Below, in pieces: positions 392 to 47,700 of a DNA stretch of 64,000 bases. Under the pieces are notes generated by a model. The model was not told where the DNA came from and did not search any database. It saw nothing but the letters and a program-made list of their open reading frames with translations. This DNA is from Escherichia phage naswa. The stretch's first letter is position 1; each line of letters opens with the position of its first letter. The DNA lies in the sequence record MN850595.1; one strand, written 5' to 3'. The translations under genes and the position numbers were made by a program.

Positions 392-772
392 TTATGACAC
401 TTTGACATAGCGCTCTGACAAAGCTGGGAAGCCAAAAGTAGTGCCTATACTACCATAGGCTATCCACCATTGGAGTTCATCGTGACACCATTTTCCGATC
501 AGGAAGGTGCTGGGATAGCGGGTCAGTATTTTGGCATAAGCTTTAGGATCTGCATCTTCTGGGATAATGATGCTTGGAATATCTTTGTTATGACCACAGC
601 AGCAGTTTAGCGTTTTCAAACCTGCTGCCCACAAACTCATGATAGGCTTAGCCATACACTTATCAAGGCACACACGTTTTTTGCCGTCACGAAGATTTTT
701 AGGCACATCAACGATAACACTTGGATGCTTGGCACCTTTTACTTTCCAATTATAGGATTTACACTTGCACAT
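392..772 (-). CDS. hypothetical Cys-rich protein
   Basis: Track ORF 126 aa; several Cys clusters (CKCK, CCCGHNKD); co-oriented with neighbours. Confidence 0.45.
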   Translation of the reverse strand: MCKCKSYNWKVKGAKHPSVIVDVPKNLRDGKKRVCLDKCMAKPIMSLWAAGLKTLNCCCGHNKDIPSIIIPEDADPKAYAKILTRYPSTFLIGKWCHDELQWWIAYGSIGTTFGFPALSERYVKVS

Positions 773-998
773 TTAATCAGTCTCCGTCTAGAAAGCCGCA
801 CTATACGTTTTTGAGGTATACTTTACTTAAAGTCTTTATCACCTGCCACGATTGCATGAATCCACTCATTGTGATGCTCAATAGCGGTGAGATGTAACAT
901 GATGTAGTGATCGTCATTGCCAAACATGATATGATAGGCTTTGGCAGCATTTTGATATAACTTCCACATCAGGTAATGATATCTTCGCCTCATGGCTC

Positions 999-1469
999 TT
1001 ACTCCGGTTCAGGATCTGGGTAATCTTCAATAATAAAGGGCCATCCGTTCCGCTTAGCCTCAGACTTATACTCAATCTCCTTCATTGCAAACTCTAACTG
1101 ATTCTTAGCCGGAATACATGCCGGAGAATCATCAATCCAGATATCTGGGTAGATATCAAACTGCGCCAGGTAGGCTGCCTTCTGAACACCACCTGTGTAG
1201 AACACACCAACATCGAGCTCCTTGCGCCAATACTCAATGTCTACATTGTCTTGAGTAATGAATCGGAAAGTCACAAGGTAGACTGTCCACCCCTCCTTCT
1301 TCAGATCCCTGATCAGGCGGGAGAAGATGAAAGGGCTCGCATTAAACGTTCCATCAAAGTCGATGGCAATGATGTGCGTGCCGTGGCGAGTCTCATATGG
1401 ATTGCTCGTGGTAAGATTGCTGTAATTAAAAGGGACTTCTTCCCCGCAGTAGCTGTAGTCCATATTCAC
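999..1469 (-). CDS. HAD-superfamily phosphatase (possible nucleotidase / polynucleotide phosphatase)
   Basis: DxDGT motif 'IAIDFDGTF' plus downstream 'WIDDSP' acidic motif typical of HAD fold. Confidence 0.55.
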   Translation of the reverse strand: MNMDYSYCGEEVPFNYSNLTTSNPYETRHGTHIIAIDFDGTFNASPFIFSRLIRDLKKEGWTVYLVTFRFITQDNVDIEYWRKELDVGVFYTGGVQKAAYLAQFDIYPDIWIDDSPACIPAKNQLEFAMKEIEYKSEAKRNGWPFIIEDYPDPEPE

Positions 1470-1741
1470 ACCTTCTCGTTGATAAATTTACGGGCGGTTT
1501 GGTGAGTTGTTTCTGCTGTCTTCAGAATGATATTAATTTTATCGTCAAGATCATTCATCTCGGCAGTTAATTCAGGAATCTCTCCGGCATGCATGGTGAA
1601 ATCATACATAGACATGCCCAAGATCTCATTGATGCGGCGGTTGCATTCTGCAGCACGCTGGTTCATTTTCCAAGCTAACACCAAAGCCTCCTGCGTAGCC
1701 TCTAGTGCAAAATCTAATACGTCGGCCTCTTCTTTCGTCAT
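1466..1741 (-). CDS. hypothetical protein
   Basis: Track ORF 91 aa; start overlaps stop of upstream gene; co-directional. Confidence 0.45.
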   Translation of the reverse strand: MTKEEADVLDFALEATQEALVLAWKMNQRAAECNRRINEILGMSMYDFTMHAGEIPELTAEMNDLDDKINIILKTAETTHQTARKFINEKV

Positions 1742-1798
1742 CTTAGTCTCTCCTGTTGTATTGTTGGTAGGTGTATGAATACCTTATAACTCACCTTT

Positions 1799-2365
1799 TT
1801 ATTCAAACTGCAATAGTAAGTCCACCACCGCGCTAGGTCTGTCAACAAATTCCCCAGGTCCACATGCCCACAGAGGGTATCCGTCTACATACCGCCAAAT
1901 CCAACCTGCAGTGTGGAGTTCGAGCAGGGCAGTACCGTCCTTACTGTCAACCACTCTTTCCCACAGTGTCGGGCAGCGAAGCTTGAGGATCGGATCCCCT
2001 CCCTTATACCCATCCATGTAGATACCCATTGCAAAGTTCAGCATCATCTTTTTGTGCACTGATCTTTTACTGAGGGTACTCATCACTTCCTCTTTGTGAA
2101 TGTTTGTAAGCTTCTCCTTGGCTACCCGCAGATCGTTGCAACCATTGTTCAGCAGATCTTCCAGACACTTGATCCGAAGGTCGTGAATGTCTTTGTCGTG
2201 TACCGTTGGCACAGGGTCGTAGCGGTATAGCACTGTTGATACAAGGTTGCTCGGGTGTGGGTCTGACAGCAACCCATAACCCCAATACTCTTCTGTATCT
2301 GAAAGGACAAGACACCCAATGTCTCTGTCAAGCTTTCCTGTGTTGTAAGCCACATTGACCGCCAT
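1799..2365 (-). CDS. hypothetical protein
   Basis: Track ORF 188 aa; no motif recognised. Confidence 0.5.
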   Translation of the reverse strand: MAVNVAYNTGKLDRDIGCLVLSDTEEYWGYGLLSDPHPSNLVSTVLYRYDPVPTVHDKDIHDLRIKCLEDLLNNGCNDLRVAKEKLTNIHKEEVMSTLSKRSVHKKMMLNFAMGIYMDGYKGGDPILKLRCPTLWERVVDSKDGTALLELHTAGWIWRYVDGYPLWACGPGEFVDRPSAVVDLLLQFE

Positions 2366-2367
2366 GA

Positions 2368-2613
2368 CTATAGCTCCACTAGCAAAGTGCTTTCAAAGTG
2401 ACGTTCATGCAGACCGTTGTAAGGGACCACTTCCACAACGCCATCACGGACATATGGGGCCATCATGGTGGTATAATCTCCAAACGGGTTGGTATTGTCA
2501 CTAACCACAACCACCTTCTGCCCTTCCTTGGCAGAGTGCCAAATAGATCTGCACTTCATCAGGTGTTCGAGAGCCCCAGGTAAAATTTTGTTACGTTCTT
2601 TACGGGTCTTCAT
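2368..2613 (-). CDS. hypothetical protein
   Basis: Track ORF 81 aa; compact spacing with flanking genes. Confidence 0.45.
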   Translation of the reverse strand: MKTRKERNKILPGALEHLMKCRSIWHSAKEGQKVVVVSDNTNPFGDYTTMMAPYVRDGVVEVVPYNGLHERHFESTLLVEL

Positions 2614-3059
2614 AACAGGTATAGCTCCTTATGAAAGTGATCTTTTAATTTCTCACTGAGAAACTTCTTGATACCTTCCTCTAAAGTGTTTTCGATGTAG
2701 TCCAGCTTAACTGCTTCGATGGACATATCATAGATCGCCAGCTCTAAGCTGTCAAGTCCCATCATAGCATGAACCATAAGATTTTCATCTTCAGATACAT
2801 TCAGGGGACTTCCTATAACATCTGGAGGCAGAATAGTTTCCCAATTATTCTGGGTGGTAGTTCTCCCTCCCTCTACTTTACGGCGCAGTTCGAATGTGTT
2901 CTTAGTGTAGAACACTTCATAAGAAACGATACGACTGTCGCTCTCGTAATAAACGAAGTTCAGGTAGGAGCCTAGCCGCAGTCGGCAAACTTCTACCCCA
3001 AACCATTGTTTCTTATAAGAATTCAGGCTAATGCTGTCGCATTCACGTTTGCTCAACAC
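2610..3059 (-). CDS. hypothetical protein
   Basis: Track ORF 149 aa; ATGA-type overlap with downstream gene. Confidence 0.5.
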   Translation of the reverse strand: MLSKRECDSISLNSYKKQWFGVEVCRLRLGSYLNFVYYESDSRIVSYEVFYTKNTFELRRKVEGGRTTTQNNWETILPPDVIGSPLNVSEDENLMVHAMMGLDSLELAIYDMSIEAVKLDYIENTLEEGIKKFLSEKLKDHFHKELYLL

Positions 3060-3075
3060 GGCTCTCTCCTTTTTG

Positions 3076-3312
3076 TTAATCTTCGTAAATCAGGATTTCT
3101 GCTTTAGGTTTTCGTGCTTTCATGTCCAGCTCTATCCAGTGCACCATAGCTGTTTCAAGAAAAACAGCCTGGATGCATCCGTCCTCAGCAGCGTGTCCTA
3201 GCAGCATAACAAGATCTTCTCCTTCGTCATCTGCATCACGAACATACAGAATCTCCCCGGGTTCAAAATCTTTAACAACCTGATTGTTGGATAATTTACG
3301 AATTTTCGCCAT
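3076..3312 (-). CDS. small protein, tandem paralogue family (member 4)
   Basis: 78 aa; shares basic N-terminus, 'PGEIL' core and acidic tail with the three genes upstream. Confidence 0.5.
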   Translation of the reverse strand: MAKIRKLSNNQVVKDFEPGEILYVRDADDEGEDLVMLLGHAAEDGCIQAVFLETAMVHWIELDMKARKPKAEILIYED

Positions 3313-3840: not shown

Positions 3841-4103
3841 TATTGTTCCTCCACCATAACTTCGCCAATAATTTCTATGCAGGCATCCATTTCTGTAACA
3901 ACCAAACTGTGAGGTAGTTCTACAAACACCTTTCTGAACAGGTCAAATACCCCAACATATATGTTTGCAGGATGTGATTTTACAACAAGTGCTGTATTCA
4001 CATCCCCAAGTTCATCAACAAACATCACCACAGTGCCTGGAGCTACTGAGGACAGATACTTCTTAGTTTTACGGTTTGATGCAAATTTTAACTCTGTTGC
4101 CAT
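3840..4103 (-). CDS. small protein, tandem paralogue family (member 1)
   Basis: 87 aa; starts MAT..., 'PGTVVM' core, 'IIGE' near C-terminus. Confidence 0.55.
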   Translation of the reverse strand: MATELKFASNRKTKKYLSSVAPGTVVMFVDELGDVNTALVVKSHPANIYVGVFDLFRKVFVELPHSLVVTEMDACIEIIGEVMVEEQ

Positions 4104-15921: not shown

Positions 15922-16259
15922 GTTTGTGGAGAAATATCGTTAACTACGTGTGTGGCAATCCGACTCCTGAAGAGAAGGATGTTGTGATTCACGATTTTAC
16001 TAAAAGATCTCGTGAAAAAGATCTACTGCTAACAAAGGTGACTGATAAAGATCCTGCAGTAGGGGACTGGGCAGGTTTTGCGTTTACATCGGACAAATAC
16101 ACCTTTAACAAAGGTGACTACCTTGTTGTGGATTTTAACGAAGACATTGAGGGTGCTGAACCTTACTATCAAACCCTTATTGTTGCAGGGTGTGTTAATC
16201 TCTCTGCAGGTATGCACAGTTTGATTCTTTTTGAGCTTGACTCTGAAGACCTTGAGTAG
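15918..16259 (+). CDS. hypothetical protein
   Basis: Track ORF 113 aa; ATGA overlap with helicase stop. Confidence 0.45.
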   Translation: MSLWRNIVNYVCGNPTPEEKDVVIHDFTKRSREKDLLLTKVTDKDPAVGDWAGFAFTSDKYTFNKGDYLVVDFNEDIEGAEPYYQTLIVAGCVNLSAGMHSLILFELDSEDLE

Positions 16260-43929: not shown

Positions 43930-44349
43930 ATGAACATTAAATCTAATAATCCGGCATATAGCTTTGATAACGCTTTTTGTCACGGTCCGGCGGCGAAAGG
44001 ATTCGAAATCGATGGTAAACTAATTATTGTCAATGTTGACGGGGAAGAGGTTGCAGTATATCCGGTGGCAGACGTTAAAAGCCGTCTACAATGCCGCATG
44101 GATGTTACCGCCTATCAGCTTGATCCGGTCCGCATAGTTGCCCTGGTCCTGGAAGAAGAAATTAAAGCCATGCACCATAGCAACAGATTTATTGGTGACG
44201 CGCAGGATAATATGAAAGTATGCCGCCATAAAGTTAATGAAGTGCTTAAAGAGTACGGCTATAAAGATCTTATGATCAAACGCGAGGAAAAATTCCGCTA
44301 CCGTAACGACCTGGCAAATCGGATTTTTGAAATATACGAATCATTATAA
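43930..44349 (+). CDS. hypothetical protein
   Basis: Track ORF 139 aa; last gene of plus-strand arm. Confidence 0.5.
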   Translation: MNIKSNNPAYSFDNAFCHGPAAKGFEIDGKLIIVNVDGEEVAVYPVADVKSRLQCRMDVTAYQLDPVRIVALVLEEEIKAMHHSNRFIGDAQDNMKVCRHKVNEVLKEYGYKDLMIKREEKFRYRNDLANRIFEIYESL

Positions 44350-44367
44350 TTTTTTAACTGAATTATC

Positions 44368-44393
44368 AAGGGGCTTAGGCCCCTTTCTTTTTG
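44368..44393 (+). terminator. rho-independent terminator
   Basis: AAGGGGC-TTAG-GCCCCTT hairpin then TCTTTTTG. Confidence 0.6.
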
Positions 44394-44399
44394 TCTGCT

Positions 44400-46840
44400 C
44401 TTCCCCCCCTACCATAAACGGCCCTACCTGGCAAGTGGAATAATTGACGAGCCATCAATCCCACACACTGTACAAATATACATGGAAAATAACTATTGCA
44501 TAATTTTTCATTGTGTGGTAGCAAGGCCATTTTTACCCGTTTTACCTTCCAAAATTGCACGTAATGCCGCTATTGCACAAATTTTAACCTGATGCACATC
44601 TCCAATATCTTGTCAACAACTAAAAATCTTTATAAGTCATGCACTTACATAACCACAAAAGCGTGTTCTACGTGAAAAATCGAGTATAACTATAGCCGCC
44701 AGATCTCAGAATTTACGTACGCTCACCAGTCTATAGCCTGCTAAGTATTTATTCCAACCATAGAATAACGGAATAGTCAATACCTGCATAAAATAATTAT
44801 TCGTGTAAACTGCATAACATAAATCGGCTAGGATGTCAACATTTTTCGTAAACAGCTCGAAATTATAACGGTGAGTTATAATAAACAGAGAAATCTTTAG
44901 TCGTCTAATGTTTACTGTACATTACTATACTGACTGGAATCATTAGATGACTAAGAGAAAGATAAGAAATCATTAACAATGCAATTGTTTTATTCGTAAC
45001 AATAAGGCAACTATGCAAACGAATGGCATGGCGCGACGGAGTCGCGACATAATATAAAAGCAGTAACCATCACCCCCGTGATAGTTTGTCTGCAAACTAT
45101 TAATCAGATCATAGTTGCCTTGTATTTAGTTAATCATGACATAACAAGCAGGGCAACTATAGATCTGCTAATAGTTGCCCTGCTTTTATATTATGTCATG
45201 CTAATTATAATCAGTGCGATTATTGTCATGTATAATTATTGTCATGCAAACGAATGGCATGGCTGATTATCGGTGTGTAAACAGTCAATCATGTAAATGG
45301 TTAGCATGTGAACAATCAGGAATGTAAACAATCCAGTGTGTAAACTAATAGGTGTGTAAAAGTGTCATGTTGTGTCAGTTAGGTCACATTATGTCAGACA
45401 AGTTTTTCTCCTCTTTGTCAAGTGCTGCATGAAAAATTTACAAGCTTGTATGGTAGCATTTTTGCGGCCCTGTTTACATTCAGGAGTGTATGTATAATCC
45501 TTGGTGTGTGGGCGTTTAGACGTCTAGACGGTTGGAAGTATGCAGGTCAATATCTAATCTATTGGCTGCTAACTATATCCCACACAAATGATAAGAAATA
45601 TAATTGTTATATGCGTAAACTGTAACTCATGTTATCAATCCCTGTATGTATCGCCAGTGGTGCGCATAATGGGTATTATGTTAAATTGCCCGTAATGATA
45701 ACTATTCTCACAATGATAGGTATTCTCATTCACCCCCACAAGATAGGTTGCAAATGTTGTGCCACTGTGTGAACGGCCTAGCCTATTAATTTGCCTCACT
45801 GCCTTGATATTTGAGAATTGTTATAAGAATGAGAAGTATTCCCATTTCGTCCGCCTGGCAGCACTCCAGTCGCTACCGGCTCCTGACAGGGCAGCTCTCC
45901 TGTAGGTCAGGTCAAAATCGTGGTAGAATTGGGCCTATTCAGATATTTCTGGCTGACTCTTCAGGTCTGTGTGAGAAAAGCCAACCTTTCCGGCGGCGGG
46001 GAGGGGTCAATTAAAAAATTTACGTGGTGTATGAAGCGCTCTTCAGGTAAGGCAGGTATTATGTGATGAAACCCTCTTCAGGCAATGATATTTGTGGGTG
46101 TGATATTTGCTGGAAAGCCAGATATGACGGGACTCCCGGCGGGGCAGGGGTAGTACAGACAGGGAAAATATGGGGGATGTAGTTGGGGAAATTGATCAGG
46201 CAGGTAGAGTATGGAATATGTTACAAGTATGTTAAATATGGAGGTTGAATATCTGCAGGATTTGTGTGTAAAATCAAAGACTTAAGTGGTGTTGTGGTAT
46301 TTTCTATAAATAATTCAAGTTTAATAGGTAATATTTGTCTCTATCCACTTTGTGTGGTAAACAGATTCAGATGAAATTGGTTTACAAGTGTATACATAAT
46401 ATACAAATTAAAGATACAAGAAACCCCCCTCCCCCTTCGGCTACCATTCACCTTTTCCTCTGACTGGTACTTAAACACTTATTCAGACTCTTCAGGTTAT
46501 CACCCATATATCATATGGCAGTGACTGGTGTCCTCCGGCCCCTCTTTCGTCACCCGTCCGCTTCGCCATGCTAATGCCATAGCCAATGGTTCGGTTGTTC
46601 ACCCTGTTCACTCAGGTGTATCTCCATACCCCTTCAAACCGAAGAGAACAGAAAACCCGAATTACTCGGTAAAAGAAAAGAGAAGAACTTAATTTTATCA
46701 GGATAGGCAAGAATGTCAAGGCATGACTGCTCACTAAACAAGCAAACAGTCATGTGTGGTAGGTAAGTGATTGTGGTGGTAGGAAATTTAGTTGAAAGAT
46801 GTGTTATAGGTGCGCTTCCAGCACTTTAGCCGGGCAGCTA
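44400..46840. other. ~2.4-kb non-coding convergence region with several repeat families (candidate origin / packaging / terminus region)
   Basis: No long co-directional ORF; 20-bp direct repeat at 45013 and 45244; ATAGTT(G/T) palindromes 45082-45182; six TGTAAAC-like iterons 45276-45361; CTCTTCAGG x5 from 45957. Confidence 0.5.
45276..45361. repeat. six iteron-like repeats (TGTAAAC core, 14-17 bp period)
   Basis: Cores at 45276, 45293, 45307, 45323, 45339, 45355. Confidence 0.5.
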
Positions 46841-46848
46841 ATTGTGTG

Positions 46849-47064
46849 TCAGTCTAGCGGTTCATCCTCTACTTCACTGAAATCAATGTTCATGGTCTCT
46901 TCCCAACCATCGATCTCAGCACAAGAGTGGAGTTCTTTAGGGTTTACTCCCAAAGCCTCAGCAACAGAGTCTATATTTAACACCTCTGGCAGGTATGATT
47001 CATCGAATTCAAGGTAAATCAGGCCACGAGTGTTGTCAGCTCCACCAAATATCTCTATCTTCAT
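46849..47064 (-). CDS. hypothetical small protein
   Basis: Track ORF 71 aa; starts MKIEIF like other small proteins on this arm. Confidence 0.45.
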   Translation of the reverse strand: MKIEIFGGADNTRGLIYLEFDESYLPEVLNIDSVAEALGVNPKELHSCAEIDGWEETMNIDFSEVEDEPLD

Positions 47065-47185
47065 AAAATCTCCTCTGGGAATGAGAGTGTGAACAGGGTT
47101 TTATACGTTCCAATGCACAAGAATTATACACGTTTGCCTCTTCAGGCCATGCTTTAGCATGAGGAACCTGTGTGGGCTCGGTGCT

Positions 47186-47398
47186 TCATAGTCTACCACC
47201 TCTGAACTCTTCGTGCTCAGGCATAATAGAGAACCAGATATCTACGATGTCCTCCCACGTCAGGTCATCAGCCTCAGGATCTGTCTGGGACGAAGATGAA
47301 GAGTCCTCAGAATCTAAGTTTCCCTCTTTAACTGGCTCATCCAAGGGACATATGGTCACTCCTTCGGATGTCTCTTCAGATGCATGTGTGTTGATCAT
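47186..47398 (-). CDS. hypothetical acidic small protein
   Basis: Track ORF 70 aa; Ser/Asp/Glu-rich. Confidence 0.4.
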   Translation of the reverse strand: MINTHASEETSEGVTICPLDEPVKEGNLDSEDSSSSSQTDPEADDLTWEDIVDIWFSIMPEHEEFRGGRL

Positions 47399-47700
47399 GT
47401 TCCACCCGTGAGTATTCCGGCAACAGCCGCTATGGAAGTAATGATCATCAGGATCACCACTAAAACTTCAGACAATGTTCTCATTGTGTATTCCATATTC
47501 TCCAAACTGTGTGTGGATACTATCACGGGAGCGGTAATGTGTCAACAGCAACGCCGCGAGGGTTTGGTTAAAATCCGAGCGTATGGTGATTTGGGTCAAA
47601 ACGGACGTGCGTTCTCGCTACGCTCGAAAGAGAGACTTGTTTGTAGAAAGCTCTTAAACGCTCTGTAACGAGATTATCTGTCCAAGGTATGCAATCGTGC

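Follow-up and report, generated by a model that had tools for sequence, protein, structure and literature searches.

The stretch of DNA analysed here, 64,000 nucleotides (nt) of Escherichia phage naswa (record MN850595.1) and referred to throughout as the window, belongs to a Vequintavirus, an rV5-like myovirus of E. coli with a genome of about 137 kilobases (kb). Within it a nine-base sequence, CTCTTCAGG, recurs five times in 1.2 kb, next to the place where the genomes of close relatives begin and end. The array formed by these nonamers is real, under purifying selection and polar, and it adjoins a direct terminal repeat of about 458 base pairs (bp). Tentatively, and with a likelihood somewhat short of even, the nonamers are proposed to be polar protein-binding sites used in the cutting of concatemers and in packaging.

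A preliminary description of the window had pointed out the repeat and suggested a binding-site array, for a terminase small subunit or an initiator for example. An exact search agreed with the five same-orientation copies listed there, every one on the plus strand. In the entries below, the L004 clade is an uncultured sister lineage represented by the IMG/VR contigs L004/L164, L147 and L155; a near-copy and the small gene next to copy 5 are included.

45957-45965, plus strand: nonamer copy 1, exact CTCTTCAGG, 101 nt from the right boundary of the terminal repeat and orthologous to site A of the L004 clade.
46039-46047, plus strand: nonamer copy 2, exact CTCTTCAGG, with no counterpart at the orthologous place in the L004 clade.
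46074-46082, plus strand: nonamer copy 3, exact CTCTTCAGG, the first part of the most widely conserved module.
46488-46496, plus strand: nonamer copy 4, exact CTCTTCAGG, within a nearly invariant block (46432-46752), with an orthologue at L004 position 8648.
47138-47146, plus strand: nonamer copy 5, exact CTCTTCAGG, flanked by two small minus-strand genes, at 74 nt upstream of the start codon (ATG) of the one encoding a 71-residue protein.
47372-47380, plus strand: near-copy CTCTTCAGA, within a minus-strand open reading frame (ORF) of 70 codons; it is an exact CTCTTCAGG in phage Murica.
46849-47064, minus strand: gene for a very acidic protein of 71 amino acids, whose upstream region contains copy 5.

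A sixth exact match in the window lies outside the cluster, at 15966 on the minus strand. Dinucleotide-preserving shuffles gave an expectation of 0.64 copies of CTCTTCAGG for the window, and none of 100 shuffles reached six. The free choice of any 9-mer was allowed for with 200 third-order Markov simulations of the window, in which the largest cluster of any 9-mer per 1.2 kb was never five, was four in two simulations, and did not exceed three in the others. The cluster is statistically real, and the earlier statement that it stands far above chance holds. Nor is the nonamer similarly dense throughout the genome: the complete genome of the relative MaxBurger (136,346 bp) has seven copies on the plus strand and one on the minus strand, with 0.6-1.5 expected per strand, and five of these eight make up the cluster, at 94390-95587. 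When one mismatch was allowed, the window total was 30, including 24 one-mismatch variants, with 13.8 expected in total. The nonamer reads CCTGAAGAG on the bottom strand, and 19 of the 24 variants show a CCTGAAGAG-like sequence on the mRNA-sense strand (GAA GAG codons, as counted from the match list and the gene orientations); the surplus is attributed to this codon usage and is considered unrelated to the cluster. Successive nonamers of the cluster are 82, 35, 414 and 650 nt apart, an irregular spacing without helical phasing.

Conservation in relatives was a check proposed in the preliminary description. The region is matched at 88-98% identity by 121 phage records. Of 55 orthologous nonamers in 11 further Vequintavirus sequences, 53 are unaltered, compared with a mean of 67% for background 9-mers of the same region, and variable columns number 2 of 45 in the nonamers versus 58 of 300 in their flanks. 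Copy 1 is unchanged across the 12 Vequintavirus sequences, and copy 2 is altered in one of the 11 relatives, L148, which has ATCTTCAGG. As judged from these alignments, the nonamers are under purifying selection. The bases beside the nonamer differ from site to site, and because they are not conserved between sites the unit is taken to be about 9 bp.

The clustered copies have the same plus orientation in the 11 relatives and in the L004 clade, where the non-coding region aligns to the window only patchwise, at 61-79% identity. The lineage of L004, L147 and L155 carries four to six nonamers in uniform orientation, spread over 1.9 kb in L004. Copies 1, 3 and 4 have orthologues in the clade (copy 3 aligns with L004 position 7475, L147 and L155 at 76-79% identity) and copy 2 has none; the clade also has sites absent from the window, and its site F is a nonamer 61 nt upstream of the gene homologous to that for the 71-residue protein. 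Number and orientation are thus preserved, with turnover of individual sites. A binding-site array, as first suggested, fits a motif that is sharply delimited, intact amid varying flanks, polar and subject to turnover of its sites; that a protein binds it is what we infer from these properties.

In further genera of the subfamily, too, the homologous ORF-free region contains arrays of C[AT]CTT[CT]AGG, oriented as in the window. Six such copies lie between 942 and 1663 in Salmonella phage SalP219, Cronobacter phage CR8 carries the motif at 3873 and 4015, and Klebsiella phage KpS8 shows a weaker, mixed pattern; in Septuagintaviruses there are just one to three degenerate copies. The equivalent region of phAPEC8-like phages contains no nonamer and has another repeat, TTGCCATGA, instead, as would be expected if protein-DNA recognition were lineage-specific. 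Location of the region across genera by means of the phrog_639 gene was dropped, as the gene context differs in other genera, and a scan of the collection for nonamer pairs returned mostly unrelated contigs.

The position of the array within the genome is the second line of evidence, and involves the following features.

44386-46848, both strands: ORF-free region of 2.45 kb, from the ORF list and the annotations of relatives, at which plus-strand and minus-strand gene arms converge.
45397-45855, both strands: direct terminal repeat of about 458 bp, marking the physical ends of relatives; the ends of the YN3 record map here.
45269-45360, plus strand: second repeat array, GTGTGTAAA / TGTAAAC, 37-128 nt from the left boundary at 45397.

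The last plus-strand gene stops at 44349 and is followed by a plus-strand terminator at 44368-44385, and the minus-strand genes start from 46849. Copies 1 to 4 lie within the ORF-free region, and copy 5 between two small minus-strand ORFs. The ends of naswa were placed by reference to the records of close relatives. In the YN3 record the initial 458 nt are identical to the final 458 nt, and both map to 45397-45855. Similarity searches of GenBank revealed further records opening at 45397 (ECP2303 and EcoIv14a_Aya, as well as YN3) and at 45855 (EdH4, bov11CS3 and bov25_3), two break positions that are 458 bp apart; EcoIv14a_Aya is a unit-length record starting exactly at 45397. Korf et al. 2019 (PMC6563267) described 458 bp 'short terminal redundancies' in the Vequintaviruses EdH4 and HdK5. 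By these records, the physical genome ends are located in the ORF-free region. Since the terminal repeat maps there, the region is interpreted as the concatemer junction, made up of right-end leader, terminal repeat and left-end leader. Counted from the 45855 boundary, the first nonamer begins 101 nt further in; the distance of the array from the physical end at 45397 is 560-1750 nt. Between 44400 and 45956, across the repeat and to its left, no CTCTTCAGG occurs. All four exact copies of GTGTGTAAA in the window are in the ORF-free region, three of them at 45269-45360 and the other at 46264, and the GTGTGTAAA / TGTAAAC repeats share one orientation. A 127-bp overlap between the ends of the SalP219 record looks like an assembly artefact and was not accepted as a terminal repeat. 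Many GenBank Vequintavirus records are treated as circularly permuted despite the 458-bp repeat.

The same region was labelled 'non-coding' in the rV5 genome paper (2013), and a literature search for a described function of it found nothing. tRNA searches of the region and Rfam searches of the window at gathering thresholds gave no matches, and at permissive thresholds Rfam returned only chance-level matches over 44200-47400 (E > 3). No coding potential or consistent small ORFs were found in the ORF-free region; decayed coding sequence was rejected on the absence of consistent ORFs and on indels relative to L004 that are not multiples of three. A structured RNA over the array was likewise rejected, sliding-window folding of both strands giving no signal. 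The sequence GATC is scarce in 44350-47200 (5 sites in 2.85 kb) compared with the GATC-rich window (327 in 64 kb). Some 18-19 records (MG0656xx) named 'Campylobacter phage' have 88-96% identity to the Vequintavirus region; C7, the sole one examined, is marked UNVERIFIED, and these are probably mislabelled or contaminant assemblies.

In the proposed packaging role, the five nonamers would act as DNA, forming a sub-terminal array of orientation-specific recognition sites just inside the 458-bp repeat, and in replicating concatemers they would flank the junction that terminase must find and cut. A packaging-specificity protein would bind them cooperatively, candidates being an accessory factor or the small subunit of terminase, for which relatives have no annotation; its binding would mark the junction, and the shared orientation of the nonamers would set the polarity of cutting and translocation. 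The terminase suggestion of the preliminary description is favoured, really if indirectly, by the location beside the concatemer cutting site and by the existence of a comparable array in phage T7; a terminase component as the binder is the conjectural part of it.

Several observations weigh against a packaging role. With irregular spacing and an extent of 1.2 kb here and 1.9 kb in L004, the array is looser than those of lambda cosB or P1 pac, and over 40 kb separate it from the large terminase gene (in MaxBurger, gene at 683-3113 and array at 94390-95587). The T7 arrays used as an analogy have, to our knowledge, no established function. Two papers using PhageTerm described Vequintaviruses as circularly permuted or headful packagers, in conflict with fixed ends, one of the two having used transposase libraries; fixed ends were given greater weight because independent groups found identical 458-bp boundaries. 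Finally, some copies in other genera overlap minus-strand promoters or hairpin loops, which points to transcription.

This last point leads to the explanation that the nonamers serve as signals in the transcription of the leftward early genes; on the minus strand, which carries these genes, the motif reads CCTGAAGAG. It would then be part of a promoter, or an operator overlapping the -35 and spacer, and part of a terminator hairpin at the end of a unit. In SalP219 (1565) and KpS8 (5129, 4056), TTGA directly precedes the motif to give minus-strand promoters of the form TTGACC-17-TAnnnT, and the motif forms the hexaloop of a GC-rich hairpin in KpS8 (5168), CR8 (3873, 4015) and SalP219 (1627), a T-run following such a hairpin on the minus strand in KpS8. 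In the window, copies 3 (TTGCCT-16-CATAAT) and 5 (9 nt before TATAAT, upstream of the gene for the 71-residue protein) resemble minus-strand promoters. A workable distance to a -10 hexamer was found, by reading of the sequences, for only about two of the five window copies, none of six L004-clade sites and one of seven in SalP219; further copies have their -10-like hexamers on the opposite strand, and hairpins beside the nonamers are inconsistent. A class of promoters should moreover recur through the early regions, and the motif is confined to one place in the MaxBurger genome. A transcriptional function of the nonamers is given a fairly low probability. Sigma-54, MotA-box-like and Q-binding-site geometries were rejected, the -10 distances being inconsistent.

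A conserved promoter that is distinct from the nonamers is present in the region, and bears on the question of replication.

46692-46719, minus strand: sigma-70-type promoter, TTGACA-16-TAAAAT, conserved, with a terminator-like hairpin next to it at 46669-46657.

In the L004 alignment its counterpart is TTGCAA-17-TATAAT plus a hairpin whose stem bases are different yet pair. This promoter could prime an R-loop, and the nonamers, as short asymmetric repeats in an ORF-free region beside a very AT-rich stretch (46300-46400, 22-30% G+C), could be replication-origin sites for a phage initiator, for example a primase-helicase recognising short dispersed repeats. The octamers (ori/crr) recognised by the alpha protein of phage P4 are short dispersed repeats of this kind; the present Vequintavirus has a primase-helicase gene, and no initiator is annotated. 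Iteron origins and P4 ori/crr likewise consist of short asymmetric repeats in non-coding sequence beside AT-rich DNA. Unlike iteron origins, however, the array here lacks regular phasing, DnaA boxes and a neighbouring initiator gene. In the region as a whole, DnaA boxes and Chi sites number zero and the integration host factor (IHF) consensus has one match; in 44350-47200 no DnaA box was found even with one mismatch allowed, and no replication or initiator gene adjoins the array. Cumulative GC skew reaches its maximum at the region, where the gene arms converge, and the rV5 authors concluded that skew changes merely follow transcription. An origin would also leave the proximity to the terminal repeat unexplained. 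The initiator put forward in the preliminary description is not supported, and an origin function is regarded as improbable.

Inside the terminal repeat there is a further element, relevant to how an injected genome might circularise.

45659-45686 (with flanks, 45653-45692), plus strand: dif-like XerC/XerD site of 28 bp, GGTGCGCATAA TGGGTA TTATGTTAAAT.

The site has a once-per-chromosome match in 5419 of 5426 E. coli genomes. Both 11-nt arms, for XerC and XerD, are those of the host, so that within the 28 bp only the 6-nt central spacer differs, and with the flanks included 36 of 40 nt are identical to the host dif locus. An origin of the region from host DNA was rejected, this 40-bp patch being its sole match to E. 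coli genomes. Related sites with intact arms and different spacers were found in Septuagintavirus, Certrevirus, Seunavirus and Mydovirus. In CR8 (Certrevirus) and KpS8 (Mydovirus) the site is in the ORF-free region at the convergence of the gene arms; in SalP219 (Seunavirus) only the minus-strand arm beside it was seen. No literature was found on dif in these phages. A dif site in each terminal repeat would let host XerCD circularise the incoming genome. Three copies of AATGATAnnTATTCTCA are present at 45694-45728 and 45828-45844, two of them in tandem 8 nt past the XerD arm; they are loosely similar to ArgR boxes, which are accessory sites at plasmid cer, and ATTCTCA(T) motifs in CR8 and phAPEC8 are similar.

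The nonamers could on this basis act on the incoming or circularising DNA end, as sites for an end-protecting protein, as an entry pause or as a polar guide directing a translocase to the dif-like site. The array is suitably placed at 560-1750 nt from the physical end. In Vequintavirus, Seunavirus and Certrevirus it always flanks the dif-like site on the side of the XerD arm, and the bottom-strand CCTGAAGAG reads toward dif, the same polar geometry as that of FtsK-orienting sequences. Yet the motif differs from the E. coli FtsK-orienting sequence GGGNAGGG, and there is no mirrored set across dif. In addition, the L004 clade keeps the nonamers and has no dif-like site in the DNA fetched, and Septuagintaviruses keep the dif-like site with few nonamers; because each group retains one with little or none of the other, the two elements are separable. 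Only a small chance is given to such a role at the DNA end.

A broader version, in which the whole terminal region is one module coupling end recognition, packaging polarity and Xer activation, is slimmer still in probability. The dif mimic within the 458-bp repeat would provide an injected genome with two directly repeated dif sites. Like Cre/loxP in P1, host XerCD could then circularise it independently of homologous recombination, and the changed central spacer of the site would keep the phage from integrating into the bacterial chromosome. The polar nonamers, always on the XerD-arm side and pointing at dif, would load or orient a translocase (terminase or FtsK-like) toward the repeat. In P1, with loxP near pac, a recombination site is likewise present at both ends of the packaged DNA and allows RecA-independent circularisation after injection. 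Unlike in P1, the recombinase would be host XerCD and the site would be in a fixed terminal repeat rather than in headful redundancy.

Least probable is that the nonamer functions as an RNA motif in non-coding transcripts, be it a boxA-like Nus-factor site, a single-stranded loop or seed, or a processing signal: plus-strand CUCUUYAGG was compared with GCUCUUUA, the CTCTTTAGG variant holds the boxA core CUCUUUA, TGCTCTTTA is found at one L004 site, hexaloops present several of the copies in other genera, and UUCG-type tetraloop hairpins in neighbouring insertions suggest some plus-strand RNA structure, but only the CUCUU core is shared with boxA, hairpins downstream of copies are inconsistent, Rfam gives no match even at permissive thresholds, folding energy over 45900-46700 is indistinguishable from that of shuffled sequence on both strands (|z| <= ~1.6), and plus-strand transcription would be antisense to the right-arm genes, with no strong plus-strand promoter found upstream. 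A hammerhead-like core (CUGANGA, minus strand) was rejected, as the closing pair of stem II fails to form and Rfam gives no hit.

The neighbouring genes were also considered. Homologues of the 71-residue protein are present in the L004 clade at 41-43% identity and were not found in the Septuagintavirus or phAPEC8 loci fetched, so that by sequence comparison the family appears restricted to Vequintavirus and the L004 clade. The protein co-occurs with the arrays and has a weak match (E 0.16) to a small terminase-related Pfam family; it was rejected as the nonamer binder, with about 19 acidic versus 3 basic residues making DNA binding unlikely. A second small gene near the genome end (47186-47398, minus strand) encodes an extremely acidic protein of 70 residues, which like the first has no domain match. 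Annotations of small neighbouring ORFs as 'DNA translocase FtsK' had no supporting domain. On the other side, the 139-residue protein encoded last before the ORF-free region (43930-44349, plus strand) shares 89% identity with its counterpart in the phAPEC8-like phages (Stephanstirmvirinae), which are otherwise distinct, a similarity that points to a recent exchange at this end of the genome.

Further conserved elements were noted within the non-coding sequence. The block 46432-46752, which on the minus strand begins at the promoter 46719-46692, comprises 320 nt that are almost invariant in Vequintaviruses and about 68% conserved in the L004 clade, with no coding potential and no significant folding. 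In the module that starts with copy 3, the nonamer is followed by two GATATTTG repeats, at 46087 and 46102 (46087-46109). A nonamer with two GATATTTG(K)GG repeats is common to Vequintavirus, the L004 clade and, as a similar module, Septuagintavirus, with GATATTTGGG in phAPEC8; a further GATATTTG is found at 45806. To the left of the terminal repeat, 45013-45263 contains two exact 20-nt direct repeats (ATGCAAACGAATGGCATGGC) around long perfect inverted repeats with arms of 18 and 15 nt, is nearly invariant in Vequintaviruses, and is alone in the region in that it folds in a strongly non-random way (z -5 to -9, both strands). An element of about 44 nt with three consecutive hairpins (TTTCGCTGGCTATGCCAGGTGAC..GTCACCCCTTCGGG) varies in place and orientation in the non-coding region of different phages (L005, 8318-8363; L007/L008/L009/L011, about 2300-2376 and inverted; L147, 11534-11578; L155, about 250-290). 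Changes on both sides of its second stem keep the pairing, and its insertion point in L005 directly adjoins nonamer copy 5.

The region is of wider relevance in that rV5-like phages, a component of therapy cocktails, belong to the E. coli phages that are isolated most often. With the genome ends, a conserved polar array and a host dif mimic located in it, a 2.5-kb 'non-coding' region without assigned function since 2013 becomes a testable centre of cis-acting control, and the location of the genome ends here bears on annotation, many records being treated as circularly permuted. The array and junction together may be a minimal packaging signal, of relevance to phage engineering, and the dif-like site prompts one to ask if large lytic phages take advantage of Xer recombination by the host.

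No literature describing the nonamer array was found, and its place among packaging sequences was assessed by comparison with known systems. Recognition arrays for terminase small subunits, such as the R sites of lambda cosB, the hexamers of P1 pac and the pacL and pacR boxes of SPP1, are short repeats beside the cleavage site that provide packaging specificity and polarity; they are defined by terminase binding, span about 100-200 bp and are usually in or beside the terminase genes. As in these systems, several short repeats here adjoin the cutting position, the nearest copy being 101 nt from 45855.

The second comparison is with T7, whose short-repeat arrays flanking the terminal repeats are reportedly the SRL and SRR of Dunn and Studier's description. 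In the T7 sequence, the first 360 nt contain 11 copies of CCTAAAG, all in one orientation, of which three are in the 160-bp terminal repeat and the rest just internal to it; at the right end copies of CCTAAAG(AG), including CCTAAAGAG, precede the terminal repeat. T7 and the present phage thus share a short motif (7 bp versus 9 bp) in many copies and one orientation, adjoining a short direct terminal repeat (160 bp versus 458 bp), with repeats on both sides of the concatemer junction. The motifs are also alike: CCTAAAG and CCTAAAGAG in T7, and here the bottom-strand CCTGAAGAG, or CCT(G/A)AAG(A/T)G, with CCTAAAGAG variants. This bottom-strand motif points toward the terminal repeat, like the right-end array of T7. 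The resemblance to the T7 heptamer was noticed post hoc and may be due to chance. Differences are that T7 uses one heptamer on both sides and inside the repeat at a spacing of about 13 nt, whereas in the present phage the motif differs between the two sides (CTCTTCAGG and GTGTGTAAA), the repeat itself contains neither, and spacing is 35-650 nt; T7 is furthermore a podovirus with its own RNA polymerase, and the phage here an unrelated 137-kb myovirus. Together, these comparisons place the nonamer array, as a variant, with the sub-terminal repeats and terminase recognition arrays of known phages.

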